Source: an uncultured Planctomycetia bacterium
GTDB lineage: Bacteria > Omnitrophota > Gorgyraeia > Duberdicusellales > 4484-171
DNA length: 64,000 nucleotides
Reading direction: 5' to 3'
Assembly (NCBI GenBank): GCA_964635565.1
Contig: CAZWON010000002.1
Span: forward strand, 14,936-78,935
Shown: positions 13,812 to 29,466 of the stretch, piece by piece
Layout of the letters: the number at the start of each line of letters is the position of its first letter
Numbering within the stretch: position 1 is the stretch's first letter
Notes under the pieces: generated by a model
Seen by the model: the letters and a program-made list of their open reading frames with translations, nothing else
Databases searched by the model: none
Told to the model about the DNA's origin: nothing
Made by a program: the position numbers and the translations under genes

Positions 13812-16415
13812 TTAATGATCAGACCTACGGACAGATTTAATTCCTACTTTATCGTAACTATAATACACATAACACTCCTTAGTAATCTCACCAGCAATCC
13901 GTGGATTCCATATACCTAAAATGCCCACCTTTTTATTGGTAGAGTCGGGGTCTTTGCGAGTAACTTTAATCCAGGTTCTCTCTCCATTGTCCTTATAATC
14001 CTTCATTATAAGACAAATTTTTTTAACCAAAAAACACCCACTTTCTTTTTTTTCCAGACGAGCAAGTTTAAAAGGCCCGACTTCTACAGTTATGGAATGA
14101 TTCTCTAAAGTCCCTCCTCGTTTATCCTGCCAGGAATAAGTTATACTGCCTCCCCCGTCTTCCGCTCTCTCCGTGGTCTCTATAACATGAATTTGGTTAT
14201 AAAATTCCTCTATCTCGGAAAGGAAATCACTTATTTCTTTCTGTCTGCTCTCAAGAGAATCCAATACAGGCCTAAACTCATCATCCCATCTAATATCAAT
14301 GGTAGCAAACTCATCATCAACACTATTTAATTTTTCTTCCATCTCATCTAATACTCCTAAAAATGCCTCTTCGCCCATAGAAGGTATCTGCAAATCAGGT
14401 GTAGAAAGCTGTTCAACTCCTTGTTTATCCCCTTCATAAGTATTATCTTCGCAGATAGTATTACAATTTCCTTCGTCATCACATTCCTCATGGCAGCACC
14501 TGCAGGTATATCTATAATGAAAGTTGTAAGAAATCGTACCTCTTCCTTCTCCTAAATTTCTCCTCTCGCAAGGAGAATGAATATTGCCCTTTAAGGAAAT
14601 CTTTAAACTCTCAATTTCTACCTCGCCAACTAAAGAACAATTATCTTGTGAGCACACATCAAAGAACTCTCCTTCTCTAATACGATCTTTAAGACTCCTT
14701 ACAAATTCTCTTACTATACCTATCTCATCTGTTAACTTATTTTTATCATCAGCATAAAGCTTACACACAGGATTAGGAAGAATTACCCCTGATACTTCTC
14801 GTGAATCTTGTGTCCAATTACAGGGGTAAATAGGCTCATCAGGAGGATTATAATTATTACAGGAGGGTTCATCTTTTATACTTTCTTTAACTGAGCAAGG
14901 TGTGATTATGTATTCCAACTGACAAGGAGTAAGATTATTGCGAATATCAATGGTTTCCTCTATCCATTCACCCATTGCAGAAACAATAGACTCTAAATCA
15001 TTATAAAAATCGTTCCCCCTGCCAGGATTATATAAATAATCTACCCAGTCATAATTTTTGTCTAAATCCCCGACGTTGTGTTTTAATATTCCCTCGGCAT
15101 AATCAATAAATTCCTCCAGATGGTAACGTGCTCCATCTACATCATCATAGCCGGAAGGCACAGGACAACTCTCGCAATCTTTCTTATACCACCCTACAAG
15201 AGATGCCTTGTCAGGTCCTGGCTCCCAGAAGCTAACCTCATAATTGCAATCTTCCAATGCCCGCCACAACTCTATAGGAGGAGCATCACAAGATACACAA
15301 TCACATTCCACCTCTTTTCTATCCATCTCTGAGAGAAATTCTTCAATATTCTGTTTAAAAGGCCTGAGAGAATTATTTACAAAATTATTTATAACATCTA
15401 CTCCTGAAATTAAACTTTCTTTTAAATCTTTTATGTGCTTATCCCACCATACTAAAAATGCAGGAACTTTGTCATCTGTCTTCCCATCACAATCTATATC
15501 AGTGGTATCGGTAACCTTATTAGGATCATCCACTGTTTTTGAAAGAACCTGAAGAAATACGCCTTCTCTAATACGCTCATAGTCAGGAAGGCCATTAAGT
15601 GCTTTGACAAAATTTTCCATACCCGCTGCAAGGCTCTTATCCATCATAAGGCCAGTATAAATACTTGCCCCCACAGCAAGAGAGCCGCCAATAATAGCAC
15701 CTGTTGTAGAAGCAAAAGCAGTAACAACAGAACCCTGCAGTAAGGTTCCTCCTTCTAACACCCATCCCGATATTGCCTTCCCTGCCTCAAAAACCATTAA
15801 TCCACCTGTAGAACTACCAGCAGCACCCCCTCCTACCTCAAATGTTGCTCCTCCTGCGCCTGCTACTGATTGTGTTCCTCCCAAGAGACTTGCCCCTCCA
15901 GCAATTGCTGCTCCAATCATCGCTCCTTGAATTGCCCCCATCGCCATTCCTTTAAGAGGGTTATTAGCAGTAAAAGATCCTCCTATTGCCCCTCCTATTG
16001 CCCCTCCTATTACTGCAGCAAGACCAGGGCCACCAATAACAAACCCTATTATTGCTCCAATAATAGCAAGAACTACTCCTAAAAGCCCCCCTTTCTTGCA
16101 TTTCTTTGTTTTGTTGCCTAACGATTCATACAACATATGACTTTTAGATGCCAACTGAGAACCTAAATAAAGACCTGCTGAATCTATAGCATTAGAAATT
16201 TGTGTTAACCTGTTTGTGACATTTCCAATATTTATCACCACAAGAGTAAAAATTAATACAAAAATAATCATTAAAATAAAAAGAGTGGCTATTTGACCTC
16301 TTTTATATATACTTTTTACAGTTTCAAATATATAATTATTTTTTTTCTTCTGGGTAGAAATTTTAAGTCTGGTTAAGTTCTTTAAAGAAATTATCTTGCC
16401 TAAACCAGAAAACAT
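13812..16415 (-). CDS. TadG-like pseudopilin / minor pilin (867 aa) with a Gly-zipper segment and a large Cys-rich acidic C-terminal domain. Putative pilus-associated adhesin.
   Basis: N-terminus QIATLFILMIIFVLIFTLVVINIGNVTNRL resembles the TadE/G N-terminal motif (PF13400-like). GGAIGGAIGG-type glycine zipper, then about 600 aa rich in Cys, Asp and Glu. Sits in a Tad gene neighbourhood. Confidence 0.5.
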   Translation of the reverse strand: MFSGLGKIISLKNLTRLKISTQKKKNNYIFETVKSIYKRGQIATLFILMIIFVLIFTLVVINIGNVTNRLTQISNAIDSAGLYLGSQLASKSHMLYESLGNKTKKCKKGGLLGVVLAIIGAIIGFVIGGPGLAAVIGGAIGGAIGGSFTANNPLKGMAMGAIQGAMIGAAIAGGASLLGGTQSVAGAGGATFEVGGGAAGSSTGGLMVFEAGKAISGWVLEGGTLLQGSVVTAFASTTGAIIGGSLAVGASIYTGLMMDKSLAAGMENFVKALNGLPDYERIREGVFLQVLSKTVDDPNKVTDTTDIDCDGKTDDKVPAFLVWWDKHIKDLKESLISGVDVINNFVNNSLRPFKQNIEEFLSEMDRKEVECDCVSCDAPPIELWRALEDCNYEVSFWEPGPDKASLVGWYKKDCESCPVPSGYDDVDGARYHLEEFIDYAEGILKHNVGDLDKNYDWVDYLYNPGRGNDFYNDLESIVSAMGEWIEETIDIRNNLTPCQLEYIITPCSVKESIKDEPSCNNYNPPDEPIYPCNWTQDSREVSGVILPNPVCKLYADDKNKLTDEIGIVREFVRSLKDRIREGEFFDVCSQDNCSLVGEVEIESLKISLKGNIHSPCERRNLGEGRGTISYNFHYRYTCRCCHEECDDEGNCNTICEDNTYEGDKQGVEQLSTPDLQIPSMGEEAFLGVLDEMEEKLNSVDDEFATIDIRWDDEFRPVLDSLESRQKEISDFLSEIEEFYNQIHVIETTERAEDGGGSITYSWQDKRGGTLENHSITVEVGPFKLARLEKKESGCFLVKKICLIMKDYKDNGERTWIKVTRKDPDSTNKKVGILGIWNPRIAGEITKECYVYYSYDKVGIKSVRRSDH

Positions 16416-16459: not shown

Positions 16460-16714
16460 TTACTTAAAAACATCTAAATCAGGATACTCCGATTCATCAA
16501 CAAACACAGGCTTATCACTATGTTGGGTATCTTCTGATGCAGCATCGCGACGGGTATCATTATAATCTTTTTCTCTCTGAACCATCTGATTATTCATCCA
16601 CACAAATATATTGACTGCTCCTACCATTAGTATTACTACAACTGCTAAACTTACGGTAAGCTCTAATATAACCTGAGTTTTTTTAATAACTTGTCTGCCA
16701 CTCATTAGAATCAT
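16460..16714 (-). CDS. Small TadE-like pseudopilin (84 aa).
   Basis: RBS GGGAGGA before ATG (MILMSGRQVIKKTQVILELTVSLAVVVILMVGAV). Shares the KKxQ...E class-III-like prepeptide with the Flp array. The N-terminal part of the track ORF 16460..16936 overlaps the upstream gene and is rejected. Confidence 0.5.
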   Translation of the reverse strand: MILMSGRQVIKKTQVILELTVSLAVVVILMVGAVNIFVWMNNQMVQREKDYNDTRRDAASEDTQHSDKPVFVDESEYPDLDVFK

Positions 16715-17702
16715 TCCTCCCTTTAATGGTAGAAATGCTTTTAGAAGTATAACTACCTGATTCATCTCCATAAGGATGGTAAATAACCTCCCGGGTTGTA
16801 GTAAATGACCAATTAAAATCATCTTTTGAGATAATTTTTCCTTGCGGCTGTTGGTTAACTGTAAGGGTATCGTTTCTTTCTTTAACTTGAGCAATCTCGG
16901 GCTGGATTCCCATCGCTTTGGGCTTAATCTGCTCACCCCCTATAATACCGCCGAGATTAGCAAAAGCAAATAGCTCTTCCAGCTTATCACAATACCAGGG
17001 AGTATTTATAGATACCGCACACACTTCTTCACAGCTAAACTCGTAAGCACCTCCCTCTTCTCCGCTCCACCTGCCTTCTTCACACTGCTGGGCGCATACA
17101 TCCTTATCTGTAATCATTCTGCAAATTCTTACTGCTGAGCCGTAATCTATACTTTCTCCTGAATAGGGGTCTATTATGGTTACAACCCCTGAATCTTCAT
17201 CCCACTTAATATTTGAACCTCCATATATCTCTTTATATTTTTCTACTATCTTTTTTACTTCCTCATCCCCGCTACTACCCACATTTTCCTCTCTAATTGC
17301 AGCAAGATAAAATGTCTCTTTTCTACTATCATTTCCCTGAAACTCCATTGTTATTCTGGGTAGCTCTTCTTTGGTATCAGCAGTTTTATCTATACGATAA
17401 TTACGAACTACAATTGCACTACCGCTAAAACCTTCAGCGCTTCCCACCCCAAAAGGGTCGGAAGGGCTGGGAATATGCTTATCTCTTACAAGAAAATATG
17501 TTGCCTCGCGCATATCACGAGAGGCAGATGCCAAAGCTTTCCTAAAAGCATGCTGGCTTGTTCTCTGCTGAAAGTTATACTTGAGTCCGTAACTTACAAG
17601 AACACCTAAAATAAACAAAAAAACTCCTCCAAAAATGGCAGTTTCCACTAATGATTGTGCCTTTTTTCTGCTGGTATTATATTGCTCTATAATATTCATC
17701 AT
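16683..17702 (-). CDS. TadE/TadF-like pseudopilin (339 aa) with a Cys-rich C-terminal domain.
   Basis: N-terminus SRKKAQSLVETAIFGGVFLFILGVLV carries the same KKAQS motif as the pilins. The C-terminal region has many Cys (CAQQCEEGRW...SCEEVCAV...WYCDK). Confidence 0.5.
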   Translation of the reverse strand: MMNIIEQYNTSRKKAQSLVETAIFGGVFLFILGVLVSYGLKYNFQQRTSQHAFRKALASASRDMREATYFLVRDKHIPSPSDPFGVGSAEGFSGSAIVVRNYRIDKTADTKEELPRITMEFQGNDSRKETFYLAAIREENVGSSGDEEVKKIVEKYKEIYGGSNIKWDEDSGVVTIIDPYSGESIDYGSAVRICRMITDKDVCAQQCEEGRWSGEEGGAYEFSCEEVCAVSINTPWYCDKLEELFAFANLGGIIGGEQIKPKAMGIQPEIAQVKERNDTLTVNQQPQGKIISKDDFNWSFTTTREVIYHPYGDESGSYTSKSISTIKGRNDSNEWQTSY

Positions 17703-17707: not shown

Positions 17708-18559
17708 TTATATCCCAAATAACCCTCCCTCTTTAAACCGTATGAGAACAGGCCCTCCTATAATAATAATTACAACACCTAAAATAAGAATCAAAGGTAG
17801 AATAATAAGAATTGATGCTCTTATAGCTTGCTTTTCTCCTATTTGAATTCTCCTCTCCCGCGCATCCTCGGAAATAATGTCAAACACCTCGTGGATAGGT
17901 GTCCCCATCCGCTCTGCCTGAATTAATGTATTGGCAAAACTGCGTATTTCAGGAAGATTGATTCGGTTAACCAAGCTTAAAAGAGCCTCCTGCCTTGAGC
18001 GACCCATAATAATTTCATTTACAACAATCCGCAAATGATAAAGTAAGGGATTCATCTGTGTTTTTTCCAGTATCCACCGCAAACCGGAGAGGAAATCAAG
18101 ACCAGCCTCAATACATAACCCTAAAAGATCTATTGTCTCAGGAAGATGTTTTAAAATTTGAAATTTATATTTTTTAACCTTATCTATTAGCCAGATATCC
18201 GGTAAAACAAACCCTACTATACTAAATATAACAATAAGTGTAACATCCGTAGAGTTAGTAATTAAATAAAAACCAAAACCTCCTCCTATAGCAAATATTT
18301 CTTTTATAAACATAAAATCTTCAGGATTAAGGCGAGAATTAATAAATTGCAATTTACTGCGAAAAAAACCTTTAAGCCCCAGGATGCTTAATAAAAAAGT
18401 ATTTAAAGGATAAAATGGTAGGCTTAAAAAAACAATCGGCCTTTTTCTGGTATAATCTATATTTAATCTTTTTAATATAGAAACTTTTTCCTTTCCTGTA
18501 AAGGCTGTAAAAAATAAATACACTGCGGCGACAATAAAAACTATAATTATACCAACCAT
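17708..18559 (-). CDS. tadC: Tad pilus inner-membrane platform protein TadC-like (T2SSF/GspF family).
   Basis: T2SSF-domain-like sequence (GLDFLSGLRWILEKT...ARERRIQIGEKQAIRASILIILP) with several TM segments. Confidence 0.65.
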   Translation of the reverse strand: MVGIIIVFIVAAVYLFFTAFTGKEKVSILKRLNIDYTRKRPIVFLSLPFYPLNTFLLSILGLKGFFRSKLQFINSRLNPEDFMFIKEIFAIGGGFGFYLITNSTDVTLIVIFSIVGFVLPDIWLIDKVKKYKFQILKHLPETIDLLGLCIEAGLDFLSGLRWILEKTQMNPLLYHLRIVVNEIIMGRSRQEALLSLVNRINLPEIRSFANTLIQAERMGTPIHEVFDIISEDARERRIQIGEKQAIRASILIILPLILILGVVIIIIGGPVLIRFKEGGLFGI

Positions 18560-18569: not shown

Positions 18570-19439
18570 TTAATAATGCACGGTAGTAAAGATTTTGATT
18601 AAAAACAATGCTATCACTTGAAGGACTACCGCTGTTACCAAAAGCATTCTCCCCAAATCGCTCTGAAACATTATCTCAAAATGATGAGGATCCATTTTAT
18701 GCACCACTATAACAAATACAACTGGTAATATAGAGATAATCCCTGCCTGCATTCTCCCTTGAAAAGTCATAATCTTCATCTTATCATTTACTTTTTTTCT
18801 TTCCCGGATAGTCATAATGAGACGGGAAAATACTTTCACCAAGTTACCTCCTGTTTCTTTACCAATCACAATAGCTGTAGTCATAAGTTTTAGATATTCG
18901 GAATTAATCCGTTTGTTTAACATTTTTAAAGATTCCTCTAAAGATGCCCCTATTTTGTGTGCTCTTAATACCAGCTCAAACTCATCCTTTAAAGGAGGAA
19001 TACTGATGCTAACCATTGACTCAATAGCCTGAACAAAACTCAATCCTCCTTTGAGAGCATTGGAAATCTCAACTAAACCATCAATGAGCTGTTCATTAAA
19101 GCTCTCTATTCTTCTTTTTTTAAGTATTCTTAAGAATAAAGATGGAACAACAAAACCAATTGCAATTCCCATCACAGTAGTAAATACTGTCTTGGTCAGT
19201 ATATAGGCTATAATTCCTAGAACAAAAGGAAAAATTATTAAAAAAAATCTCAATTTAGAGGAAGGAGTGTAAAAAATATCTTCCAATTGAGAAGAAAATC
19301 TCTCAACTCTTTTATGGTGCAGATGGCTTATTTTTCTCAAATACTTATAAAAAGGTAAAGAGGGAAATGCCTGCGTAAACAGAAGTACAGCACCTCCTAC
19401 AAAAATGAGCGAGCTTGACAAAAGTAATCCTGGACTCAT
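18570..19439 (-). CDS. tadB: Tad pilus inner-membrane platform protein TadB-like (T2SSF/GspF family).
   Basis: LVEISNALKGGLSFVQAIESM...GKETGGNLVKVFSRL is typical of TadB/CpaG. Confidence 0.65.
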   Translation of the reverse strand: MSPGLLLSSSLIFVGGAVLLFTQAFPSLPFYKYLRKISHLHHKRVERFSSQLEDIFYTPSSKLRFFLIIFPFVLGIIAYILTKTVFTTVMGIAIGFVVPSLFLRILKKRRIESFNEQLIDGLVEISNALKGGLSFVQAIESMVSISIPPLKDEFELVLRAHKIGASLEESLKMLNKRINSEYLKLMTTAIVIGKETGGNLVKVFSRLIMTIRERKKVNDKMKIMTFQGRMQAGIISILPVVFVIVVHKMDPHHFEIMFQSDLGRMLLVTAVVLQVIALFLIKIFTTVHY

Positions 19440-19448: not shown

Positions 19449-19637
19449 TTAAGGCTGGTATTGACGACCATAACCAAACACATCAACTGAGGCTTTCCAC
19501 TTCCCGCAAATTGCTTTTTTCAAATAACCCTGCACCATAATTAGTGCTAACACTATAGTTAGGATAAATACCCCATACTCTATAAGAGAAACTGCTCTTT
19601 TATTTTGTAATTGTCTGGTCTCTAATTTGTGTAACAT
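19449..19637 (-). CDS. flp: Flp-family pilin paralog (62 aa).
   Basis: NKRAVSLIEYGVFILTIVLALIMV has a hydrophobic core after the conserved EY. Member of the tandem array. Confidence 0.6.
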   Translation of the reverse strand: MLHKLETRQLQNKRAVSLIEYGVFILTIVLALIMVQGYLKKAICGKWKASVDVFGYGRQYQP

Positions 19638-19917
19638 CTTCCTCTATATTCTCGACAGTTACTAACCCTAAATAATTCTCTCCATTTATGGTGACATTAT
19701 CTATATAACTATTCGTTGTACTATAAGAAGTTACGCTATAAGTAGAAATTGAATTTATCCCTTCTGTATCATACAACATCCCTAAGGAGTCTGATTGTGT
19801 TTTAACTCTTCCTGAATAAGCTCTTTTTAAATAAATACTCATCAGAACCAAACTGGCAGATATCACAGCAACCATCACACTATACTCCAATAATGTCTGG
19901 CTTCTTTTAATCTTCAT
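19600..19917 (-). CDS. flp: Flp-like pilin paralog with C-terminal extension (105 aa).
   Basis: MKIKRSQTLLEYSVMVAVISASLVLM. Confidence 0.55.
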   Translation of the reverse strand: MKIKRSQTLLEYSVMVAVISASLVLMSIYLKRAYSGRVKTQSDSLGMLYDTEGINSISTYSVTSYSTTNSYIDNVTINGENYLGLVTVENIEEDVTQIRDQTITK

Positions 19918-20239
19918 GCTCTATTTCTCCTTGCCAGGATGAAGAAGTTGCTTCTATAGAGACCTTGCTCTCTGAATCTATCATATGGGCGGTTGCGTTT
20001 TCCTCTATGGTTTTATTTTCATTGCTCTCAGTTGTTGTCTGGGAACCTAAGCTGAAACTTTTTTTAGGATTGAACTCTATAGAATACTGTTTTCCCTCGC
20101 TCATTTGATCAGCCTGATATTTCACTACAGACTGAATACTTCTCTTTATATAAGTCTGCATACTAATTACTGCTGCTGTAAGAACACTTACTAAAATTAC
20201 ATATTCACCAATAGACTGTGTTTTTAGCTTTACTCCCAT
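19907..20239 (-). CDS. flp: Flp-like pilin paralog with C-terminal extension (110 aa).
   Basis: MGVKLKTQSIGEYVILVSVLTAAVISM. Confidence 0.55.
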   Translation of the reverse strand: MGVKLKTQSIGEYVILVSVLTAAVISMQTYIKRSIQSVVKYQADQMSEGKQYSIEFNPKKSFSLGSQTTTESNENKTIEENATAHMIDSESKVSIEATSSSWQGEIEHED

Positions 20240-20706
20240 AAATTTTCTTGTTTTAAACTCACTCCTGAAAAACTGTCTGTATAGCTTGTTTTTGTATACT
20301 CGTCTTCCAATAGCTCATCTTTAACTTCTCCATTAAACTGAAAAGTCCTTCTTGTATGAGAAAAAGAATGGGTTGATTTTACAAGATTACTATGTGAAGG
20401 AGAAAACTGAATTCCTAAAGCATTAGCATCTTTCATTAATCTTCCTTGATTGGCTGTTTTTATATAGACAAAAGAAATCACCATAGAAACCCCAATTAAA
20501 GCAATCAATACCCCATATTCAATTATAGCCATAGCTTTTCCAGATTCTTTTCTTTTTTTTGTATAGCCAAAAGAAGATATGTGTGTGCTGTAATTATTAA
20601 TAATTTTTCTAATACCCTTGTTCAATTTTAATCTCCCTCTCTCTGAATTTCTTAGAAATATCTTCTCAGAACCTAAAATAGCTTTTAGTCTAGAAAGCAT
20701 TACCAC
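20230..20706 (-). CDS. flp: Flp-like pilin paralog with C-terminal extension. Start uncertain: possibly a TTG after RBS AGGGAG, giving about 133 aa.
   Basis: KKRKESGKAMAIIEYGVLIALIGVSMVISF motif. The track ORF starts further upstream. Confidence 0.45.
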   Translation of the reverse strand: MVMLSRLKAILGSEKIFLRNSERGRLKLNKGIRKIINNYSTHISSFGYTKKRKESGKAMAIIEYGVLIALIGVSMVISFVYIKTANQGRLMKDANALGIQFSPSHSNLVKSTHSFSHTRRTFQFNGEVKDELLEDEYTKTSYTDSFSGVSLKQENLWE

Positions 20707-20709
20707 CTT

Positions 20710-21033
20710 CTAATTCCACCCATCATCCTGAGTTGAATCTATTCCTGTTATCCTCTGGCCCCTCGTAGTTGTATTAGTAGAAAATGTATGTTGTATATCC
20801 GAAGCGCTATGACTTTCCTTACTTTCCTGATAAGTTTCTGTCTCTATATTCTCAAAGATATAATATGGGGTATACTGGCGAGGCACCCCTGCTATCTCTG
20901 TTACAAAATCACTTGCTCCTTTTAATCTTGCCTGATAACCCCTTTTAATAAAAGTCTGCATAGCGATAAAAGCACTTATCACTACTCCTACTAAAAGGGC
21001 ATATTCAGTTATGCTCTGTGCTTTCTTATTCAT
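20710..21033 (-). CDS. flp: Flp-like pilin paralog with C-terminal extension (107 aa).
   Basis: RBS GGAG, then ATG MNKKAQSITEYALLVGVVISAFIAM. The track used an upstream TTG. Confidence 0.55.
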   Translation of the reverse strand: MNKKAQSITEYALLVGVVISAFIAMQTFIKRGYQARLKGASDFVTEIAGVPRQYTPYYIFENIETETYQESKESHSASDIQHTFSTNTTTRGQRITGIDSTQDDGWN

Positions 21034-21035
21034 TA

Positions 21036-21197
21036 TCAATGGTCTCCAATAATATGTGATATTTTATCTCCCAAGGCATTATAGTAAGTATCAAGCCCAT
21101 TTTTAATAGAGCCCTTAAATCCTATTATCAAAGCCAAAATAATAGCAGTAACCATCAAAAGATACTCTACTGTAGCCTGACAACTTTTACTACACAT
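21036..21197 (-). CDS. flp: Flp pilin (53 aa), missing from the ORF track because it is under 60 aa.
   Basis: RBS GGAG. MCSKSCQATVEYLLMVTAIILALIIGFKGSIKNGLDTYYNALGDKISHIIGDH read by hand from the reverse complement. Confidence 0.55.
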   Translation of the reverse strand: MCSKSCQATVEYLLMVTAIILALIIGFKGSIKNGLDTYYNALGDKISHIIGDH

Positions 21198-21199
21198 AC

Positions 21200-21574
21200 T
21201 TACTCACTCCAAATATCAGATTCATTACCTTTAAGGTTGTAATTGATTCCCCAGTCTTTCTTACTGACCTGCCCTCCCTTATAATTGAGATCTATCTCGC
21301 TCTCTAAGCCTAATCCGCTATCAACCAATTGTGATTCTGACCAGTATCCACTACCAATAGCATCACTTGACCCTGTGGTTTCATTTGAACTGGCCTGATC
21401 CCAGCTATTGCTCGTATAGTTTGCTCCAAAATGTTCAGTGCTTATGCTATCTGCGGAACTCTTAAATCTACCACTAATAGCTTGTTTCACGTATCTCTGT
21501 GCTATTATTACAGCAGCAAGAAAGACAGCAATTAACACTGCATATTCTGTCATACTTTGTGCCTTTTTTCTCAT
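21200..21574 (-). CDS. flp: Flp-like pilin paralog with C-terminal extension (124 aa).
   Basis: RBS GGAGGTGAG, then ATG MRKKAQSMTEYAVLIAVFLAAVIIA. The track ORF is extended 5' to 21703. Confidence 0.55.
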   Translation of the reverse strand: MRKKAQSMTEYAVLIAVFLAAVIIAQRYVKQAISGRFKSSADSISTEHFGANYTSNSWDQASSNETTGSSDAIGSGYWSESQLVDSGLGLESEIDLNYKGGQVSKKDWGINYNLKGNESDIWSE

Positions 21575-21608
21575 TCTCTCACCTCCGCTCTGTATTTCTT
21601 CTATTACA

Positions 21609-22007
21609 TTACCTCTCTTCTTCCCATAAGTTATCAGCGGTATCACGAAGCGCATGCTGTTTAGAAAATCCCCCACTTCCTCTTCCACTAATCTCACTGC
21701 CACTGATATTAGCTACATAATCATTATTTACGTTGATATCGGTTTTACTGGCCTGTTGAGTTTGATATTGTGATTCTAAATAGTAAGGTTCGTACTGCTT
21801 TATGCTCTTAAACTCTGCTGTTACGTCTGTCATATTTTCAGCTGTCATTGTAAAAGACGGCTGAGTCAAAGCATTTACTCCTGCAGCTGTTCGAGCCTGT
21901 AAACCACGTTTGATATATACCTGCATTGCCACTGCCGCAGAAATAACCACACCCAGAATAATTGCATATTCCGCTGTTGATTGAGCTTTTTTTATCCTTA
22001 TTAACAT
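21609..22007 (-). CDS. flp: Flp-like pilin paralog with C-terminal extension (132 aa).
   Basis: MLIRIKKAQSTAEYAIILGVVISAAVAM. Confidence 0.55.
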   Translation of the reverse strand: MLIRIKKAQSTAEYAIILGVVISAAVAMQVYIKRGLQARTAAGVNALTQPSFTMTAENMTDVTAEFKSIKQYEPYYLESQYQTQQASKTDINVNNDYVANISGSEISGRGSGGFSKQHALRDTADNLWEEER

Positions 22008-22032
22008 ATTACCCCCCTTTTTTTATGGAATA

Positions 22033-22230
22033 CTACTCCTCACTTAACCCCATTTTACTGCTTATCTCAGTAGAAGCTTTGTCAATAATCTGTCCTGCAG
22101 TATCTGCCATCTTCTCTGCTTTAGGCTTAATAACACTCTTGGCAGCATAAATAAATGCTAATATCAATGCGGCAGCAAGTAAAGTATATTCCACAGTAGA
22201 TTGGCCGTTTTTCTTTAACTTCATAAACAT
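22033..22230 (-). CDS. flp: Flp pilin (65 aa).
   Basis: RBS AAGGAGG with a 5-nt spacer, then ATG MFMKLKKNGQSTVEYTLLAAALILAFIYA. G at -5 relative to the EY Glu matches the G/XXXXEY TadV site. Confidence 0.6.
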   Translation of the reverse strand: MFMKLKKNGQSTVEYTLLAAALILAFIYAAKSVIKPKAEKMADTAGQIIDKASTEISSKMGLSEE

Positions 22231-22249
22231 AAAACTACCTCCTTTTATT

Positions 22250-22414
22250 TTAAGATGCTTCACTTTCTGCTTCTATATTAATCTGATCCTCAATAAGCTT
22301 AAGATTTGCCTGCGTCGCTCTCTGGACATAAACACTCATTGCCACAATAGCTGCAGCTACAACACTTACTAACATTATATACTCAACAATACTCTGAGAA
22401 GCTCTTTTCACCAT
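22250..22414 (-). CDS. flp: Flp pilin (54 aa), missing from the ORF track.
   Basis: RBS GGGGG. MVKRASQSIVEYIMLVSVVAAAIVAMSVYVQRATQANLKLIEDQINIEAESEAS. Confidence 0.6.
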   Translation of the reverse strand: MVKRASQSIVEYIMLVSVVAAAIVAMSVYVQRATQANLKLIEDQINIEAESEAS

Positions 22415-22415
22415 C

Positions 22416-22595
22416 CTACTTTACCCCCATCTCTTCCATCTTTCTAACAAAGAAATCTTCGCTTTCTTCTTTTACTCTCTGGATAGCATTATTAAAACCC
22501 AAAACCGTTAAAATAATAATCAAAGCAAACGCTAAGAAATATTCAACTACTGCTTGAGCTTTTCTTTTCCTTTGAATATTTTTATCTGACCTCAT
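22416..22595 (-). CDS. flp: Flp pilin (59 aa), first gene of the array, missing from the ORF track.
   Basis: MRSDKNIQRKRKAQAVVEYFLAFALIIILTVLGFNNAIQRVKEESEDFFVRKMEEMGVK. An AT-rich 770-bp promoter region lies upstream. Confidence 0.6.
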   Translation of the reverse strand: MRSDKNIQRKRKAQAVVEYFLAFALIIILTVLGFNNAIQRVKEESEDFFVRKMEEMGVK

Positions 22596-22913
22596 TCTAT
22601 TCTAATTACCCCTCTATTTTAGAAACAAAAACGATTTACTCCCTCTTTCTGTTATTCATCCACACTGTTATTACAAATAAATACTCGCTTTTTAAGATTA
22701 TTCTTTTATTGCCTCCCGCTGACCACTTCAATATAACATATTAAATAATAGAAAAACAAGGGAAAGGAACATTTTAATGAAAGCGTTTTCTTATCTGAGA
22801 AAATATAATTAGTTAGTATGATTAATTATTCTAATAGACAATAAAAAGATAACAAAAAGGGGATAATTTCGGATATATTAAAGCTAACAGGCTCAACTCT
22901 TCTCTATTCTATT

Positions 22914-22945
22914 TTTAGGCCTATTTTTAGGCCTAAATATAGGCT
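22914..22945. promoter_or_regulatory. Candidate operator upstream of the pilin array. Palindromic AGGCCT hexamers as direct repeats at about a 12-bp spacing (TTAGGCCTATTTTTAGGCCTAAATATAGGCT).
   Basis: Seen directly in the intergenic region between the cpaF-like gene and the first flp. Confidence 0.3.
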
Positions 22946-23370
22946 TTGTAGAAATACTCATACGCTTTTGGATAATTTTTCTTCTCTAAATATACTCTTC
23001 TTAGTATCCTTTACTCTTATAGAAAAATAAAAATGCTATCCACAGAAGTAAATTTAACTTCGCTCTTATTATGAATCCTTTAAGAAACAACATTTACCTG
23101 CTAAAACATAAATTTTCTATTAGAAGTAACGGGTTTGATGTCTTGGCTATAGGAATTAATACTCTTTTATCAGAAAGAAAAAACTCAAAAGGGGAATAAC
23201 AAGAGCTTCTTTATAAAATCTTGCCAAAGCAAATCTATTTTTAATTAGAGAACTTCATTTGAAACATTATTGCTGGCGAAATAGTTAATCCCGCAAGCAT
23301 TATAATAAAAAGAATAAAGTCAACTTTCTTCAACATATTCTACTTATTATTTATATCTTTTCTATCTTTT

Positions 23371-25539
23371 TTAGGTATGAGGAGAAAAAATATCAGAAGA
23401 GAGTTTAATGTCTCGCGAGACAATCTCATCATAGAATGTGGGAATATAACCGGTTGGAGAAAAATCGCCAACAATCTCACCGCCAGGAGCAACACCTTTT
23501 TGTTTAAAAACAAATATATCTTTTAAGTTGGGTCTGCCATTGGGTGTTAATCCTGCGAGTTCAGTAATCTGAATAACTTTTCGTGAACCATCGGATAAAC
23601 GAGCGGTGTGGACAATTAAATCTATGGCAGAGGCAATTGTTTCTTCAATTGCTCTTAAAGGTAACTCTATGCCACTCATAAGAACCATATTATCTAATCG
23701 GATAATAACTTCATGGGTAGAATTAGCATGGATAGTTGATAATGAACCATCGTGCCCTGTATTCATTGCCTGAAGCATATCTAAAACTTCTTTACCCCGA
23801 CACTCCCCAACAATTATTCTATCCGGGCGCATACGTAATGCATTTCTGAATAACTCCCTTATAGTAACTTCTCCTTTACCTTCTATATTAGGAGACCGTG
23901 CCTCTAATCGAATCCAATGGGTTTGAGACAACTTAAGTTCTGCGGTATCCTCAATAGTTATAATGCGCTCGTTAACAGGTATATAGGTAGAGAGAATATT
24001 TAAAAGGGTTGTTTTGCCAGAACCAGTTCCTCCTGAGATTAAAATATTCTTCCGGGCCATAACTACTGCTTCTAAAAATTCCCCCATTTGTGGTGTAAGA
24101 GACTTAAATCTGTTAATCAATTCTTCCATTCCTAATCTTTTGTAAGGAAATTTTCGAATAGTAAGGGTAGGTCCACTTAAAGATAAAGGAGGGATTATGG
24201 CATTCACCCTCGAACCATCAGGAAGACGTGCATCTACATAAGGAGAAAATTCATCAATCCGTCTTCCCAAAGGAGCAAGGATTCTATCAATAATTAACTT
24301 CACTTGTTCATTTGAGATAAACCGTTTGCTGGTAAGTTCGATTTTACCATTTTTCTCAATAAAGACTTGGTCCATATTGTTTACCATTATTTCAGTGATA
24401 TTGGGATCGCGTATCAAATCCTCCAAAGGACCCAACCCTAAAGCTTCATCAACAATCTCTTGAACCAATTTTCTTCTTATCTCCAAAGAAGAAATGAAGC
24501 TTTGAGTTTCTTCTATTAAAATATTATTTACGACTCTTTCTGCTGTTTCTCTTAATTCCTTAGACTTATCTGTATCTAACATTAAAACTTCTACAGGCAT
24601 CCTCTTCAGGTCCATTCGCTCAATTAATTTCCGGTGAACTTTTTCTTTTAAGGTTATAATTGGGTCTTCCTCTCTTGTCTTAACTTGAAGAGGCTCCACT
24701 AATCCCAGATTAACTAATAAACTACTTCCTCCATCAATTACCTCTGCGGGTCTCTTTCTAAGCTTAAGTTCAGACAGCTCTTTTGTAGGAAGATAAATAT
24801 CCTCTCTTTCTAAAAGCTCATCTGCTAATTTCTTTATAGCTAAAGTTACACTACTACGGGAATTATCTAAAACTACAGGAATACCTTTATTTAAAGCAAC
24901 TCCTACAGATTTTCCTTCCGAAGGAATCTGAGAAAAAATCTCTACAGGAAAAACCATCTTTACTTCTCCTACATCCACTCCTCCTCTACTCTCTGCCCTA
25001 TTAAGAATAATTTTTAACATTTTTAAAGGAAAATATAAACTCTGTAAAGTATCCAATATCCACTCAGTATGATAAACGGAAAGGATATCAGGAGTTACTA
25101 TAAGAAATATCAAATTAGAATTATTAAAAATTTTCACCAAATTATCGCTTAGACTTCTACCGCCGTCTATAATAATAAAGTCATAATCCAATTTTTGAAA
25201 TAAGGTTAAGAATTCTTCAATATGTTGGGGTTTAATATGATGAATTAATCTTAAGGAAGATGCTGCTGACAAAAAATCAAGAGAAGAATTTAAAGAAGTA
25301 AAGAAACTTTTTACATCTTTCTTGCCTCCCATAATTTCTTTAGTGTGAGCAATTAAATCTATCAGGGTCCTTTGAGGCTTTATATTAGCCATTTTCACCA
25401 TATCTAAGGGGGCATTCAGGTCTAACGATATAAGTAGAATTTTTTTCTTCTGTAAAGAAAGGCTAACCGCAACATTAAGAGTAACCATGGTTGTACCCAC
25501 GCCACCTTTTGTGCTAAAAAATACAACTGTCTTTGTCAT
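23371..25539 (-). CDS. Fused TadZ/CpaE-like (MinD/ParA-family, degenerate Walker A) and TadA/CpaF secretion ATPase (722 aa).
   Basis: N-terminus VVFFSTKGGVGTTMVTLNVAVSL is ParA/MinD-like. The C-terminal half has a T2SSE-type P-loop ILISGGTGSGKTTLLN plus Asp/His boxes. Confidence 0.7.
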   Translation of the reverse strand: MTKTVVFFSTKGGVGTTMVTLNVAVSLSLQKKKILLISLDLNAPLDMVKMANIKPQRTLIDLIAHTKEIMGGKKDVKSFFTSLNSSLDFLSAASSLRLIHHIKPQHIEEFLTLFQKLDYDFIIIDGGRSLSDNLVKIFNNSNLIFLIVTPDILSVYHTEWILDTLQSLYFPLKMLKIILNRAESRGGVDVGEVKMVFPVEIFSQIPSEGKSVGVALNKGIPVVLDNSRSSVTLAIKKLADELLEREDIYLPTKELSELKLRKRPAEVIDGGSSLLVNLGLVEPLQVKTREEDPIITLKEKVHRKLIERMDLKRMPVEVLMLDTDKSKELRETAERVVNNILIEETQSFISSLEIRRKLVQEIVDEALGLGPLEDLIRDPNITEIMVNNMDQVFIEKNGKIELTSKRFISNEQVKLIIDRILAPLGRRIDEFSPYVDARLPDGSRVNAIIPPLSLSGPTLTIRKFPYKRLGMEELINRFKSLTPQMGEFLEAVVMARKNILISGGTGSGKTTLLNILSTYIPVNERIITIEDTAELKLSQTHWIRLEARSPNIEGKGEVTIRELFRNALRMRPDRIIVGECRGKEVLDMLQAMNTGHDGSLSTIHANSTHEVIIRLDNMVLMSGIELPLRAIEETIASAIDLIVHTARLSDGSRKVIQITELAGLTPNGRPNLKDIFVFKQKGVAPGGEIVGDFSPTGYIPTFYDEIVSRDIKLSSDIFSPHT

Positions 25540-25543: not shown

Positions 25544-27160
25544 TCATCTTTCTGCTCTATACACTATGGGGACTTCAATATTTACCTCTTCCAAACGCAT
25601 CTGGGGAGAAAAAGGAGGGTAAGATAATTTTCTTACTACTTTTAATGCTTCTTCGTCAAATATCTTATAGCCTGAAGAACGAACAATACTTACATCTTTA
25701 AGTTCTCCTGCGGATGATAGTCTTAAAGATAAAACCAAATTCCCTTCCCACCCTGTATGTCGTAACACGCGAGGATAAGAAATATTACTTAAAATTCTTC
25801 TCTGAACCTGATAAGCATACTCTTTAAACTCATCCGGAATATTAGTCTGGCCGTACAATTTAAATATCCCCCTTTTTGTGGAAAATTCTTCCTGCAAAAA
25901 ATCATCTTCTTTGTCCGCTTTGCTTTCCATATTAATAATATGAGGAGTTAAAGTAATAAAAAGTTCAGTATTTCCCCTTTGACCTGCACCCCCTCCTATA
26001 CTTATGGATCTGTGTCTGAAAAAAGCTCCTAATACAGGAAGGTCTGCTAACCAGGGAAATCTTTTTAAATCCTCATCTGTCTTTTCCTTTATAAGTCCTC
26101 CTATAGAAAGAGTTGCTTTATCTCTTAAAGAAACCTCTGTAGAGATTATCCTCTTTGTTAAAGGATATGCTTTAGCTGTAGGAGCATCAGGATCCCCTAT
26201 AGTTTCTACCGGTTGTAATTCGCTTACTTCTATATCCAATTTAATATCCACCTTATCTCTATTGACTACTTTGGGTTCAATATTTAACTTTATTCCATAT
26301 TCTTTATATTCAATATTAGTACCCTCTCCTTCAGAAGAAACTTCTGTAGCAAAAATGGGAACTTCTCCTCCTATAAGAAGGCTAGCGGTTTTACCGCTTC
26401 TACACACCAATCGGGGACGAGACAAAATTCTTGCCTCGCCTTTCTGAATTAATAAATCTAATGTGAAGCTAAAAGCAGAGCGTGTCCAGTCAGAAACGTG
26501 AAGTAATGCTGAAAGACCTGTTACTGCCTGGACAGTTGGCCCGCTTGACTCTGTAAACTTAATAGCACTGGGCATATCAAACCCTAAGGTTCTAACGGCA
26601 TCTTTGCTTAATTCTAACACCTGCACTTCAATCTCTACACTTGATTCTTCTTCCCGCACATTAATAAAATCTAAAACTTTATCTTTAAGTTTCCCTAATG
26701 CTGCCATAAGTCTATTTTTCTCTTCTTCTGTTTTTACTTCTCCTTTTAGCAAAACCTTATTCTCGCTGTCTAAGGCTTTGGTATAAATATTTAAAAACCC
26801 TATATTTTTTAAAAGATTATCAATTCTTTTCTTAATCAATGCCATATTCTCCTTATATACTTTAACTTCTATACTGTGGTGCCCAAATTTATCCCACCAG
26901 TTAAAAGAAGTTTCTCCTTCGGTTTTACCTACAATAGTTATATCTTTTTCTGTAACATTAACCACATCTATTACCTCAGGATTACCAATAGCAATACGCT
27001 GGGGGCTGTTTACAGAAATTACTTTCTGTTCATTTACATATAAAACAAGAGTTGTTTCATCGCTACTAAATAAATCCTGGAAATTTTGAGAAAAAAGAAA
27101 TGAACTGTTTCCTAAAAATATTACACAAAAAAGAATAATCTTTAAATATGTTTTTTTCAT
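25544..27160 (-). CDS. cpaC: CpaC/RcpA-type secretin with a C-terminal TonB_C-like domain (538 aa).
   Basis: Signal peptide. QRIAIGNPEVIDVV is a pilus-formation N-terminal motif. Secretin core LLIQKGEARILSRPRLV...FPWLADLPVLGAFF. C-terminus YPRVLRHTGWEGNLVLSLRLSSAGELKDVSIVRSSGYKIFDEEALKVVRKLSYPPF matches the TonB C-terminal fold. Confidence 0.65.
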   Translation of the reverse strand: MKKTYLKIILFCVIFLGNSSFLFSQNFQDLFSSDETTLVLYVNEQKVISVNSPQRIAIGNPEVIDVVNVTEKDITIVGKTEGETSFNWWDKFGHHSIEVKVYKENMALIKKRIDNLLKNIGFLNIYTKALDSENKVLLKGEVKTEEEKNRLMAALGKLKDKVLDFINVREEESSVEIEVQVLELSKDAVRTLGFDMPSAIKFTESSGPTVQAVTGLSALLHVSDWTRSAFSFTLDLLIQKGEARILSRPRLVCRSGKTASLLIGGEVPIFATEVSSEGEGTNIEYKEYGIKLNIEPKVVNRDKVDIKLDIEVSELQPVETIGDPDAPTAKAYPLTKRIISTEVSLRDKATLSIGGLIKEKTDEDLKRFPWLADLPVLGAFFRHRSISIGGGAGQRGNTELFITLTPHIINMESKADKEDDFLQEEFSTKRGIFKLYGQTNIPDEFKEYAYQVQRRILSNISYPRVLRHTGWEGNLVLSLRLSSAGELKDVSIVRSSGYKIFDEEALKVVRKLSYPPFSPQMRLEEVNIEVPIVYRAER

Positions 27161-28104
27161 TCAGAAATAGATATATATTCTTTATTTAGTCCCCGGTAAA
27201 TCTCTATCTTTTTAGGCTCAAGCTTTTTAGGCTCAAGGGGTTTTACCTCTACCTGGGGCAAAGTAGAATTTATATACTGAAAAAGAGTATCCCATCCTGC
27301 AGGAGGAAGAGGTTTTACTTTTGCATCGGCAGGAGAACGTAAAACCAGACGAATTCTTCCCTGTTCAACAACAAAAGACAATAAACTTGCCTCTTGAGGA
27401 GAAAGTGCCAAGGTAATCAAAGGATTTTTTTCTTCTTTTGTACTTCTTTGTTTTAACCGCAAACTCCATAAACCAGTCTTTCCTTTTTCTTTTTTTTCTA
27501 ATAACTTTTCTCCTACAGCTAAAACTAAAACTTTCTGAAAAAGGGGTATAGTAGTATTAGTAGTCTTAGTCCCTTCAGGAGTTTTAACAGGTAAAGGTAA
27601 AAGAGCAATAACATCAACATAGTCTCCTGGTTTAATCATTCCTACCAAACCACTTATATTATCCACACTAACCGTAATTGCTCTTTTACCTACAGGTGTT
27701 GCCATTGCCAAAGATTCCCCCCTTGCCATCGTGGGAGACATCAGTTTACTTAAAGTAATCTGTTCTCCCTTGTTTATAGCAACAACTGTTTTCATACCAA
27801 TTATTCTGTCTGCGGAAGTTACAGATTTAGGCTGGATATATTCATTAGGAATTACTTTCGTCTCAATCATACTCTGTACAATTTCTGCTCCGGCGGGTAT
27901 ATCTTTTTTAGCGACAATCACTGAGTTTAAATTTTTATATCTTTCCATAAATGTCTTCTTTAAATTATTATACATTTTATTCCTTTCTTCTTTTATATAA
28001 GTATTTATAAGAATAATTGCGCCTATACTTAAGATGATCCCTCCGCTTAAACTTAACATCTTTTTAGATATTCTTGGCCCCATTAAACCTCGCCTTTGTT
28101 TCAA
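27157..28104 (-). CDS. cpaB: CpaB/RcpC-like Flp pilus assembly protein (SAF domain).
   Basis: N-terminal TM segment, VIVAKKDIPAGAEIVQSMIE SAF-like, GMIKPGDYVDVIAL. Confidence 0.6.
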   Translation of the reverse strand: MKQRRGLMGPRISKKMLSLSGGIILSIGAIILINTYIKEERNKMYNNLKKTFMERYKNLNSVIVAKKDIPAGAEIVQSMIETKVIPNEYIQPKSVTSADRIIGMKTVVAINKGEQITLSKLMSPTMARGESLAMATPVGKRAITVSVDNISGLVGMIKPGDYVDVIALLPLPVKTPEGTKTTNTTIPLFQKVLVLAVGEKLLEKKEKGKTGLWSLRLKQRSTKEEKNPLITLALSPQEASLLSFVVEQGRIRLVLRSPADAKVKPLPPAGWDTLFQYINSTLPQVEVKPLEPKKLEPKKIEIYRGLNKEYISISE

Positions 28105-28125: not shown

Positions 28126-29040
28126 TTACTGAATCTTATCTTCCATTATCTCTATTTTAGCATTTCTTGATAAATTACCCACAAGGTCATCTATTCTTTT
28201 CTGCTGTTTTATAAATGTCAAACCTCTCTTTATATCATCCCACATCTCGGAGAGAGTTTTTTGTTTTCCTCCTTTTTTACCCTCTACAGTAATAATATAA
28301 TACCCATCTGGCCCTTTAAATACACTGCTTATCCCCCCTACACTCAAAGCATCGGAAAAAGCTATCTCATCAAATTCTTTAAATTTTGTGCCTGGCTTAA
28401 TGAAGCCTAAATCCCCTCCTTTCTCAGCAGTAGGTGCCTTAGAGTACTGGCGGGCTAAAGAAGCAAAGTCCTCACCTTGCAATAACCTGATTAATAAATC
28501 TTTTGCTTGAGATTCACTAATAACTACTATTTCTCTTATCTTTCTTTCTTCTGGCTCTTTTAAATTTTCTTTAGCAACATTGTAATAATCCTTAATTTCT
28601 TGAGGAGTAACGTTTACTTTATCTGTTTCCTCCTTAACTAACTGGTAGACAAGCAGTTGCTGTTTAGTATTCTCCAATGCTTTTATCACCTCAGGATTCC
28701 TATCCAAACCTCTATCCAAGGCTTCTTGATAAAGAAGAATGCGCTTTATAACTTCATTTTTTAAATAATCTAATTTTTTTTCTCGTGTAGTTATTTTAAG
28801 CTCAGGTTTATCCTCAGGGACTGCATTATTATAACGGTCTATTTCCTCCTCTAAATCTTCTAAAGTAATGGGATAACCATTTACCTTAGCAATAACTGTT
28901 CCTGTAACAGGAAGTTTGGAAGTAAAGGGCTCTTTTTTGGACTCTGAGGCAGGTTTTTTACTGAATTTTAATTTATCACAGCTCACAAGAAAAAAACTAA
29001 TACAGACAATTAATCCTATTATAAAACTCCTCCCTTTCAT
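28126..29040 (-). CDS. Parvulin-type peptidyl-prolyl isomerase lipoprotein (PrsA/SurA-like).
   Basis: Lipobox LVSC. PPIC motif region QYSKAPTAEKGGDLGFIKPG. Confidence 0.6.
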   Translation of the reverse strand: MKGRSFIIGLIVCISFFLVSCDKLKFSKKPASESKKEPFTSKLPVTGTVIAKVNGYPITLEDLEEEIDRYNNAVPEDKPELKITTREKKLDYLKNEVIKRILLYQEALDRGLDRNPEVIKALENTKQQLLVYQLVKEETDKVNVTPQEIKDYYNVAKENLKEPEERKIREIVVISESQAKDLLIRLLQGEDFASLARQYSKAPTAEKGGDLGFIKPGTKFKEFDEIAFSDALSVGGISSVFKGPDGYYIITVEGKKGGKQKTLSEMWDDIKRGLTFIKQQKRIDDLVGNLSRNAKIEIMEDKIQ

Positions 29041-29188
29041 CTTGCCTCCTTTGGTTAATTAATTACAATTAAAAGAAATATCTATAAATTTAATACCATA
29101 ATATAGGGGAGTTTGCAAGGAAAAAATATTCAAAAAATAAGAAACTAAGAGGATATATTACGCGTAAGATATATTAAAATAAAAAAAC

Positions 29189-29261: not shown

Positions 29262-29466
29262 CACCATAACTATTCCCTATAGCTTATCGAGGTATTATAT
29301 TATTCTATTTGTCTTCTGAAATATGTCAAACATAAATGTACAGCAGTTTGCCTCCCCAAAATTGATATAGCCTCTAAATAAATCTGTATTCTAAGCACTT
29401 AATTCTAAAAGAAAAATTTTCAACTTTCAATTTCTAATTTTTATTAAATTATCAATGAGACAATTT

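Follow-up and report, generated by a model that had tools for sequence, protein, structure and literature searches.

The canonical Tad/Flp pilus loci of Aggregatibacter (flp-1/tadV/rcpCAB/tadZABCDEFG) and Caulobacter (pilA/cpaA-K) carry one to three flp genes together with tadE and tadF, and tadV is part of the locus. Here we describe a Tad locus in a 64-kb stretch of DNA (called the window here) and, within it, an array of 11 tandem pilin-like genes, g1–g11, at positions 19449–22595 of the minus strand (Table 1). The source organism is an uncultured, probably predatory member of the Omnitrophota related to 'Omnitrophica bacterium 4484_171'. Like the canonical loci, this one encodes RcpC, a secretin, TadZ, TadA/CpaF, split TadB/TadC, and a TadG-like protein. 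The products of the array also have the canonical leader, Glu+5–Tyr+6, and hydrophobic helix (residues are numbered from the predicted cleavage site), and some are helix-only subunits of the canonical size, approximately 45–55 amino acids (aa). The locus differs in having 11 tandem pilins plus three larger pilin-like genes, no match to PF07811 (TadE/TadF), and no tadV. There are two fusions, TadZ–TadA and secretin–TonB_C, and the pilins lie between tadA and tadB. The leaders measure 5–15 aa (g8 excepted), position −1 is mostly Ala/Ser/Thr/Cys instead of Gly, and position +1 is mostly Gln.

The Tad pili of predators resemble the locus in combining several non-redundant Flp-type pilins with larger minor pilins that form, or here might form, a tip. 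For Omnitrophota, too, a predatory way of life has been proposed (PMC10066038). In the Kil pilus of Myxococcus xanthus, KilP is the major pilin, KilK and KilO serve as Flp-type adaptors, and KilLMN make up the tips (PMC12075869). A difference is that these tips are trimers of the TadE/F/G-like kind whose genes are spread over four separate clusters. In Bdellovibrio, each of flp1, flp2, and flp4 is indispensable and none can replace another, and TadV is absent, just as no peptidase is encoded in our locus (PMC5430801). Bdellovibrio and like organisms (Bdellovibrio/Halobacteriovorax) carry four to six scattered flp genes, which in 2017 were called the largest known type IVb complement (PMC5430801), whereas the 11 genes here sit in one operon. 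No larger type IVb/c complement is explicitly claimed in the literature searched. The processing motif G/QSTVEY of the Bdellovibrionota-type loci L003 and L004 matches the Omnitrophota motif. Archaeal Epd-type pilins (PF04021, formerly DUF361/UPF0333) share Gln+1, Glu+5, and a short basic leader with the array. Unlike those pilins, the array products match PF04021 only below threshold, and the machinery is that of a bacterial diderm Tad system with a secretin.

Omnitrophota are abundant, uncultured, ultra-small bacteria, at least one of which preys on archaea and bacteria. What their genomes reveal about attachment to other cells and killing comes mainly from the Tad locus and the giant gene next to it. 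Omnitrophota Tad complexes and a proposed link to predation have already been published, as the available passages of Seymour et al. show (2023, PMC10066038). The 'T2SS-like' locus upstream of Omnitrophota giant genes, as described in the available passages of West-Roberts et al. (2023) and Seymour et al. (2023), is the same kind of conserved locus. Its small pilin-like genes receive one sentence in the available text of one preprint. No count, classification, or analysis of them was found in the literature searched, including the passages of these two papers. Four points are new here. The block of 11 genes is fixed and ordered, with 14 pilin-class proteins to a locus. The long Flp-like pilins form a large family that escapes Pfam. 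Position −1 carries Ser/Thr/Cys in some products, and the locus encodes no peptidase.

Gene content and signal motif of the array

The array consists of 11 tightly packed, consecutive small open reading frames (ORFs), as the initial annotation had described; the count is confirmed by the ORFs themselves, by a six-frame scan, and by purifying selection on every gene. Each product has a short basic leader with Lys/Arg at most five residues from the cleavage site, a small residue at −1, Glu+5–Tyr+6, and a hydrophobic helix of approximately 20 residues; the uncharged hydrophobic run after EY spans at least 12–14 residues. When all six frames of the window were scanned for [GASTC]xxxxE[YF] followed by an uncharged hydrophobic stretch, 12 matches were obtained. 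The 11 array genes account for all but one of them, within 3.1 kb on one strand, and the remaining match, at 62785, is a false positive. This clustering is far beyond chance.

The intergenic spacing in the array is −38 to +34 nt; the start of g9, for example, overlaps the end of g8 by 10 nt. A Shine–Dalgarno match of at least 4 nt precedes 7 of the 11 starts, compared with 23% of random ATGs. The strongest sites belong to g3 and g5, and that of g3 (AGGAGGT, spacing 6) is the best of all. Starts were chosen by the position of the Shine–Dalgarno site and by comparison with orthologues. The likely start differs from that of the longest ORF in g3 (22230, 65 aa), g5 (21574, 124 aa), g7 (21033, 107 aa), and g8 (20700, 156 aa). 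Three of the genes had been described as invisible to ORF calling. They were indeed missed, but only by a length cut-off that removes ORFs below 60 aa, and public collections hold gene calls, all unnamed, for the whole array. The public calls for g5 and g10 use different start codons; that for g10 (P0009, NCBI/Logan/ENA set, 91 aa) begins at an internal Met, so that the signal is lost.

The helix-only products number five (g1, g2, g3, g6, and g11) and not three as first proposed, and their mature length is 46–56 aa. The leader of g8 is exceptional. The g8 orthologue in the related locus L081 (L081 9266–9688) also has a long leader, of 41 aa and divergent sequence, and lacks a Met at +1; we therefore take the long form of g8 to be the real one. 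The predicted cytoplasmic leader of g8 is thus roughly kept in length in the orthologue, and its sequence is not.

A basic leader and a hydrophobic helix are common to all 11 products. The string KKAQSxxEY, which was thought to be shared as well, is exact only in g4, g5, and g7. Glu+5 and Tyr+6 alone are invariant. Gln+1, initially regarded as invariant, is present in nine products, the exceptions being g8 (Met) and g11 (Val). Ala is the commonest residue at −1, as annotated (six of 11). Gly occurs once, in g3, and the remaining four have Ser (g2, g10), Cys (g6), or Thr (g9). A review states that the pilin leader 'invariably ends with Gly or Ala' (PMC10191384). Seven of the 11 conform to this rule, and g2, g6, g9, and g10 do not. 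Ser/Thr/Cys at these positions is also seen in L081 and in a second related locus, L090, and among the loci compared it is nearly confined to the clade formed by these two and the window. In the wider family of long pilins, Gly accounts for 60% and Ala for 40% of the residues at −1. Judged from these predicted sites, the non-Gly residues at −1 are distinctive, unlike Gln+1. We considered Gln+1 as a special, archaeal-like trait and rejected this idea, since bacteria other than Proteobacteria, namely Firmicutes, Chloroflexi, Acidobacteria, and Bdellovibrionota, commonly have it in their Flp pilins.

Identity, orthology, and spread of the pilins

The 11 genes very likely encode Tad pilins, as the initial annotation had assumed, because a profile-level match, the annotation of g11 orthologues, matches to Protein Data Bank (PDB) entries, and the Tad context all agree. 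A profile of the 11 proteins was aligned by hhalign to Flp pilins of other phyla with a probability of 97.1% (E=5.2e-11, 49 columns). For this comparison, 38 short ORFs resembling Flp had been collected from the Tad loci of other phyla, and 27 of them match PF04964. The same profile retrieves g11 orthologues annotated PF04964/Flp (P0016 and P0017, named Flp), and g11 is the paralog nearest to canonical Flp. In a PDB sequence search with the array profile, the Caulobacter Tad pilins 8u1k and 8u2b were the only matches, and these were weak. Single-sequence matches are fainter. A search with the Flp_Fap family (PF04964), which had been proposed as a check, was passed only marginally: two of the 11 proteins match it, g11 at 17.5 bits (E=0.0037) and g5 at 14.1 bits, both below the gathering score of 32.2. 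PF04021 (Class_IIIsignal) gave three weak matches, the best being g6 (16.0 bits, E=0.012; gathering score 23.7), which also weakly matches Flp1_like. By their features, namely a helix, Gly, and an amphipathic tail, g1, g3, and g6 resemble classical Flp. Sub-threshold matches to the herpesvirus US34A family and to CoxD in plain Pfam/NCBIfam scans were dismissed as spurious.

The Tad context is complete with respect to the machinery. The CpaF/TadA ATPase, TadB, TadC, RcpC, secretin, and TadZ are all present on the same strand, with strong Pfam E values. The order is SurA-like isomerase, RcpC, secretin–TonB_C, TadZ–TadA, the 11 pilins, TadB, and TadC. The TadZ–TadA and secretin–TonB_C fusions recur in the Omnitrophota-type loci L081, L083, L084, and L086. 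The closest relatives of the ATPase, at 50% identity, are in metagenome-assembled genomes of Candidatus Omnitrophota.

L081 and L090, both of the 4484_171 lineage, contain the same 11 genes in the same order and with nearly equal lengths. Orthologues of the window and L081 are 70–88% identical, whereas the window paralogs are only 17–46% identical among themselves. The ratio of nonsynonymous to synonymous substitutions (dN/dS) against the L081 orthologues is 0.08–0.27 for all 11 genes, which indicates purifying selection. The most conserved paralog is g2 (88% identity for the mature protein, dN/dS 0.12), with the motif AMSVYVQRAxQANLKLIEDQIN; g1 (orthologue A1) shows 78% identity and a dN/dS of 0.10. 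For g5 (orthologues P0004, P0005, and P0007), dN/dS is 0.19. Further orthologues are P0010 and P0011 for g9, and P0006 and P0008 for g10 (Omnitrophica bacterium 4484_171, 'hypothetical protein'). At −1, the L081 orthologue of g6 keeps Cys, that of g3 has Ala, and that of g7 has Thr. Repeats within the array DNA are only 34–47 nt long, 62–79% identical, and located in the motif-coding region. Signs of gene conversion or recent duplication between paralogs, a kind of signature that had been suggested for inspection, are therefore lacking. Because the orthologues are one-to-one and ordered, orthologue identity is high and paralog identity low, dN/dS is low, and repeats are limited to the motif, the paralogs appear to be old and individually maintained. 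Recent duplication or gene conversion was rejected on the paralog identity and the short, motif-confined repeats. By these comparisons, the array is an old, fixed set of specialized subunits without recent duplication.

The Omnitrophota-type loci L002, L083–L086, and L087–L106 follow a shared plan. Three short pilins, S1, S2, and S3 (mature length approximately 44–56 aa), come first. They are followed by two to eight long pilins (approximately 100–125 aa) and by pilin-like proteins of approximately 350 and 80 aa. A g11-type pilin, usually beside tadB, is also part of the plan. An S1-type gene opens the array in L002, L083–L085, and most of L087–L104. An alignment of g2-type proteins takes in five further loci, and 20 metagenome loci were retrieved with g2 as the query. 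The g11-type gene lies immediately before tadB in the window, L083, and L084. At its +1 position, most loci checked have A, M, or V, and L083 and L086 have Gln. In Omnitrophota Tad loci adjoining giant genes, 8–11 pilin genes with two to three larger pilin-like genes are the rule. By comparison, the Tad loci of 78 genomes from other phyla hold 0–4 such pilin genes (maximum six), with Gly at −1 nearly throughout.

The long pilins belong to a large family. The signature of the g4 and g7 family is [GA]/Q[SN]T.EY...MQxY[VI]KRG[LY]QG[RK]...QYEPYY, and the helix-proximal part of this motif is common to g2, g5, and g8–g11. After clustering at 90% identity, 4837 relatives were counted; clustering at 50% left 5036 representatives at E≤1e-3, or 2016 when the limit was E≤1e-10. 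Among the matches listed, the best-scoring relatives are nearly all 100–165 aa long and without a Pfam domain. Most of those listed are named 'hypothetical protein [Candidatus Omnitrophica]', and some 'UPF0333 family'. A PDB sequence search with the long-pilin profile gave nothing relevant. The AlphaFold2 model of g4 has a helix at residues 11–48 (predicted local distance difference test, pLDDT, 84–95), followed by four β-strands of low confidence (pLDDT 53–65). With low confidence, the model might be read as a minimal 'lollipop' pilin topology. Five of the six long pilins (g4, g5, g7, g8, and g9) carry a Trp followed by acidic residues within their last 12 residues (C-termini DNLWEEER, DIWSE, DDGWN, ENLWE, and SSWQGEIEHED). 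In the wider family, 36 of 144 representatives have a Trp within the last seven residues.

The GTDB Velamenicoccia family 4484-171 is counted among those without Tad complexes in the available passages of Seymour et al. (PMC10066038). L081 (JGI Ga0073580_105155), from a metagenome-assembled genome named 4484_171, contains the secretin, TadZ–TadA, and the full pilin array, and its contig breaks off where tadB begins. An artefact of assembly or detection may lie behind the reported absence, provided that the genome name and the family name denote one lineage.

Proposed assembly and alternatives

We propose, with moderate confidence, that the 11 genes form the pilin block of a Tad (type IVc) filament machine with specialized major and minor subunits. 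The short basic leader would keep the N-terminus on the cytoplasmic side. Cleavage after the small residue (Ala, Gly, Ser, Thr, or Cys) would fall to an aspartic prepilin peptidase whose gene would lie elsewhere in the genome, so that all 11 precursors would be subject to cleavage of the A24 type. The new N-terminus, with Glu+5 and the 20-residue helix, would allow the subunit to be lifted from the inner membrane by TadB/TadC and the TadZ–TadA ATPase, and the stacked subunits would leave the cell as a fiber through the RcpC/RcpA secretin. The bulk subunit or subunits would be found among the five helix-only proteins. The six long pilins would each consist of a helix and a C-terminal domain of approximately 50–75 aa, probably β-rich. 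Together with the 339-aa, 84-aa, and TadG-like proteins, they would be minor pilins of low abundance, serving to prime assembly and to make up a tip or adaptor complex. In this lineage, the complex would probably make contact with cells of prey or host, or with the giant surface protein encoded next to the locus. Such a filament would serve predation or the function of the giant protein. A mixed major and minor set was one of three meanings first offered for the array, and it fits best; the division of labor itself we regard as evenly balanced. The best guesses for the major subunit are g11, which resembles Flp, or the S1–S3 triad, with which most of the arrays examined begin. The cues diverge: conservation is highest in S2, the ribosome-binding site is best in g3, and similarity to Flp is greatest in g11.

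Several observations weigh against this proposal. None of the 11 proteins reaches the Pfam gathering score for Flp_Fap, and an NCBIfam scan of them gave nothing relevant. No candidate minor pilin or pilin-like protein of the locus matches TadE/TadF (PF07811), and the locus carries no dedicated TadV/CpaA peptidase. Neither an A24 prepilin peptidase motif nor a polytopic candidate is present in the window, and no A24 motif was found in 314 kb of related loci; prepilin processing is thus assumed. By comparison, an A24 peptidase is encoded in 25 of the 78 Tad loci of other phyla. Since four of the 11 have Ser/Thr/Cys at −1, some may be poor substrates for cleavage or escape it altogether. For the g4 model, with its β-domain at pLDDT 53–65, Foldseek found no PDB match with E<0.9. 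The Omnitrophota literature searched yielded no expression data for array genes.

Three alternatives were weighed. The pilin-like proteins could instead build the short periplasmic pseudopilus (endopilus) of a device like the type II secretion system (T2SS), which would export or display the giant protein or fragments of it. Such a reading is implied in the available passages of West-Roberts et al. (bioRxiv 10.1101/2023.11.21.568195). A giant ORF (at least 4172 aa) begins at 12517, directly downstream of the Tad locus and on the same strand, and the linkage is repeated in L084 (5202+ aa), L085 (8591+ aa), and L086; minor subunits that are numerous relative to major ones are typical of T2SS. 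However, the machinery is all of the Tad type (RcpC, TadZ–CpaF fusion, split one-domain TadB/TadC), and no locus gene matches Pfam domains of T2SS pseudopilins (GspG–K type) or GspC/L/M. The five Flp-size, helix-only subunits are as in extended Tad fibers. Moreover, the giant proteins of these loci have many transmembrane regions according to the available text, which would make passage through the secretin unlikely. We consider this reading possible, if unlikely. It concerns the output of the machine and not the identity of the pilins, and it overlaps with the filament proposal. A heteropolymeric shaft, in which several paralogs (for example S1+S2+S3, or short and long pilins) co-polymerize in comparable amounts and β-rich extensions decorate the surface, is improbable. 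The solved Tad pili of Caulobacter (PDB 8u1k/8u2b) are listed with a single pilin species, and the number of long pilins varies between two and eight, which fits accessory roles better. In its favor are the preserved S1–S3 triad, the equally strong Shine–Dalgarno sites of g3 and g5, and the size and conservation of the long-pilin family, which suggests more than a trace component.

Antigenic or phase variation was another of the meanings offered initially, and we find it very improbable. It would make the paralogs alternative major subunits that are swapped or recombined, as in Neisseria pilE/pilS. Many divergent C-terminal regions do follow a common N-terminus, and an IS200-type transposase and a duplicated g1 adjoin the array in L081 and L090. 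Yet the orthologues in these two loci are one-to-one, in the same order, and under purifying selection, and the paralogs share no long or near-identical DNA repeats. Cassettes of the pilE/pilS type were rejected: the array has 11 complete genes, all with start codons and most with Shine–Dalgarno sites, in a fixed order, and no silent, promoterless, or truncated copies. The spacing is tight and operonic, and the array in the window contains no invertible element or recombinase.

An extension of the filament proposal is decidedly speculative. The locus could define a distinct type IVc sub-type with approximately 14 fixed pilin-class proteins, among them a hitherto unrecognized family of helix-plus-β 'long Flp' pilins. 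These proteins would build a fiber whose tip or adaptor module docks or deploys the giant protein during attack on prey, and cyclic di-GMP (c-di-GMP) would control the system as a whole. It would have either a peptidase relaxed at −1 (Ala/Ser/Thr/Cys) or uncleaved Ser/Thr/Cys paralogs that serve as membrane-anchored regulators of assembly. If the conserved, ordered set of 11–14 specialized subunits is real, it supplies a concrete parts list for modeling or reconstituting the fiber and its tip. It would also mean that domain libraries miss most of these proteins, so that a Pfam/NCBIfam family with thousands of members is lacking, and the unusual cleavage-site residues could be tested against the specificity rules of prepilin peptidases. 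The general picture of type IV filaments does not change: the array, although unusually large and poorly annotated, belongs as a conserved component to a machine of known kind and not to a new one.

The Tad locus and neighboring genes

The features of the locus and its surroundings are collected in Table 1.

Table 1. Positions in the window of the array genes, the Tad locus, and neighboring features.
Feature	Position	Strand	Description
g1, short pilin type S1	22416..22595	-	59 aa; 13-aa leader ending KRKA; A/QAVVEY; mature 46 aa, helix-only
g2, short pilin type S2	22250..22414	-	54 aa; 6-aa leader MVKRAS; S/QSIVEY; mature 48 aa
g3, short pilin type S3	22033..22230	-	65 aa; 9-aa leader MFMKLKKNG; G/QSTVEY; mature 56 aa
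g4, long pilin	21609..22007	-	132 aa; 8-aa leader MLIRIKKA; A/QSTAEY; 'MQxYxKRGxQxR...QYEPYY' family
g5, long pilin	21200..21574	-	124 aa; 5-aa leader MRKKA; A/QSMTEY; strong Shine–Dalgarno GGAGGTG
g6, short pilin	21036..21197	-	53 aa; 6-aa leader MCSKSC; C/QATVEY; mature 47 aa
g7, long pilin	20710..21033	-	107 aa; 5-aa leader MNKKA; A/QSITEY; QYxPYY family
g8, long pilin	20230..20700	-	156 aa; exceptional 56-aa leader ending GKA; A/MAIIEY
g9, long pilin	19907..20239	-	110 aa; 7-aa leader MGVKLKT; T/QSIGEY
g10, long pilin	19600..19917	-	105 aa; 6-aa leader MKIKRS; S/QTLLEY
g11, short pilin	19449..19637	-	62 aa; 15-aa leader ending NKRA; A/VSLIEY; mature 47 aa; ends GKWKASVDVFGYGRQYQP
SurA-like peptidyl-prolyl isomerase	28126..29040	-	opens the locus; Pfam Rotamase_2/3; position kept in L083 and L086
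RcpC/CpaB	27157..28104	-	Pfam RcpC 1.4e-21, SAF
RcpA/CpaC-type secretin with C-terminal TonB_C	25544..27160	-	Pfam Secretin 1.7e-36, T2SS-T3SS_pil_N, TonB_C 9.7e-18
TadZ (ParA-like)–TadA/CpaF ATPase fusion	23371..25539	-	722 aa; Pfam T2SSE 5.5e-63, AAA_31/CbiA/ParA
Conserved non-coding block	22705..22795	-	upstream of g1, approximately 90 nt; promoter-like TTGTTT-N17-TATATT
TadB	18570-19439	-	Pfam T2SSF, single domain
TadC	17708-18559	-	Pfam T2SSF, single domain
339-aa pilin-like protein	16683..17702	-	large minor-pilin candidate; leader ends KKA, then QSLVETAIFGG...
84-aa pilin-like protein	16460..16714	-	leader ends KKT, then QVILELTVSLAVVV...
867-aa TadG-like protein	13812..16415	-	KRG, then QIATLFIL...; weak Pfam Tad (PF13400) at N-terminus
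Predicted lipoprotein	13316-13756	-	146 aa; lipobox ISGC
c-di-GMP-I riboswitch RF01051	12666-12837	-	52.3 bits (gathering score 35); full model; 96-nt insertion in one hairpin
Giant ORF	1-12517	-	at least 4172 aa; start 12517; runs off the left window end
FIST sensor, histidine kinase, response regulator with GGDEF diguanylate cyclase	32026-35583	+	just beyond the SurA-gene end of the Tad locus
tRNA gene	29188-29262	-	immediately upstream of the SurA-like gene
tRNA gene	61239-61311	-	

The larger pilin-like proteins have counterparts in related loci. Orthologues of the 339-aa protein occur in L002, L083–L086, and L090, and one homologue is named 'pilus assembly protein'; its AlphaFold2 model is poor. 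Orthologues of the 84-aa protein measure 71–85 aa in L084–L086, and TadG-like counterparts of 456–800 aa are present in L002, L083, L085, and L086.

The conserved block at 22705..22795 is the only alignable stretch upstream of g1 between the window and L081, and it may mark the start of a transcription unit for the pilins and tadBC. A generic scan for promoters and terminators did not exceed shuffled controls, and the block was not significant in it. The gap between tadZA and g1 (22596–23370) is a site where insertions vary between loci. The window has AT-rich, non-coding DNA there, 775 nt long, in which an Rfam scan found no known RNA family. In relatives (L081 2589–7270; L083 4946–7812; L084 2466–8730), the same gap is occupied by large proteins of unknown type together with DUF192, a glycosyl hydrolase/PIG-L protein, an IS200-type Y1 transposase, and a duplicated copy of g1.

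Giant ORFs lie downstream of the Tad locus in L084–L086, as in the window. The RF01051 riboswitch is located 149 nt upstream of the giant ORF start, and this position suggests that c-di-GMP controls how the giant gene is expressed. Taken together, the riboswitch and the predicted GGDEF regulator point to c-di-GMP signaling around the locus. The Tad locus of L086 is likewise flanked by a FIST gene. The predicted lipoprotein lies between the TadG-like gene and the giant ORF, and a similar protein of 147 aa is encoded in L085, between the TadG-like gene and tadB/tadC. Two tRNA genes complete the features noted in the window.

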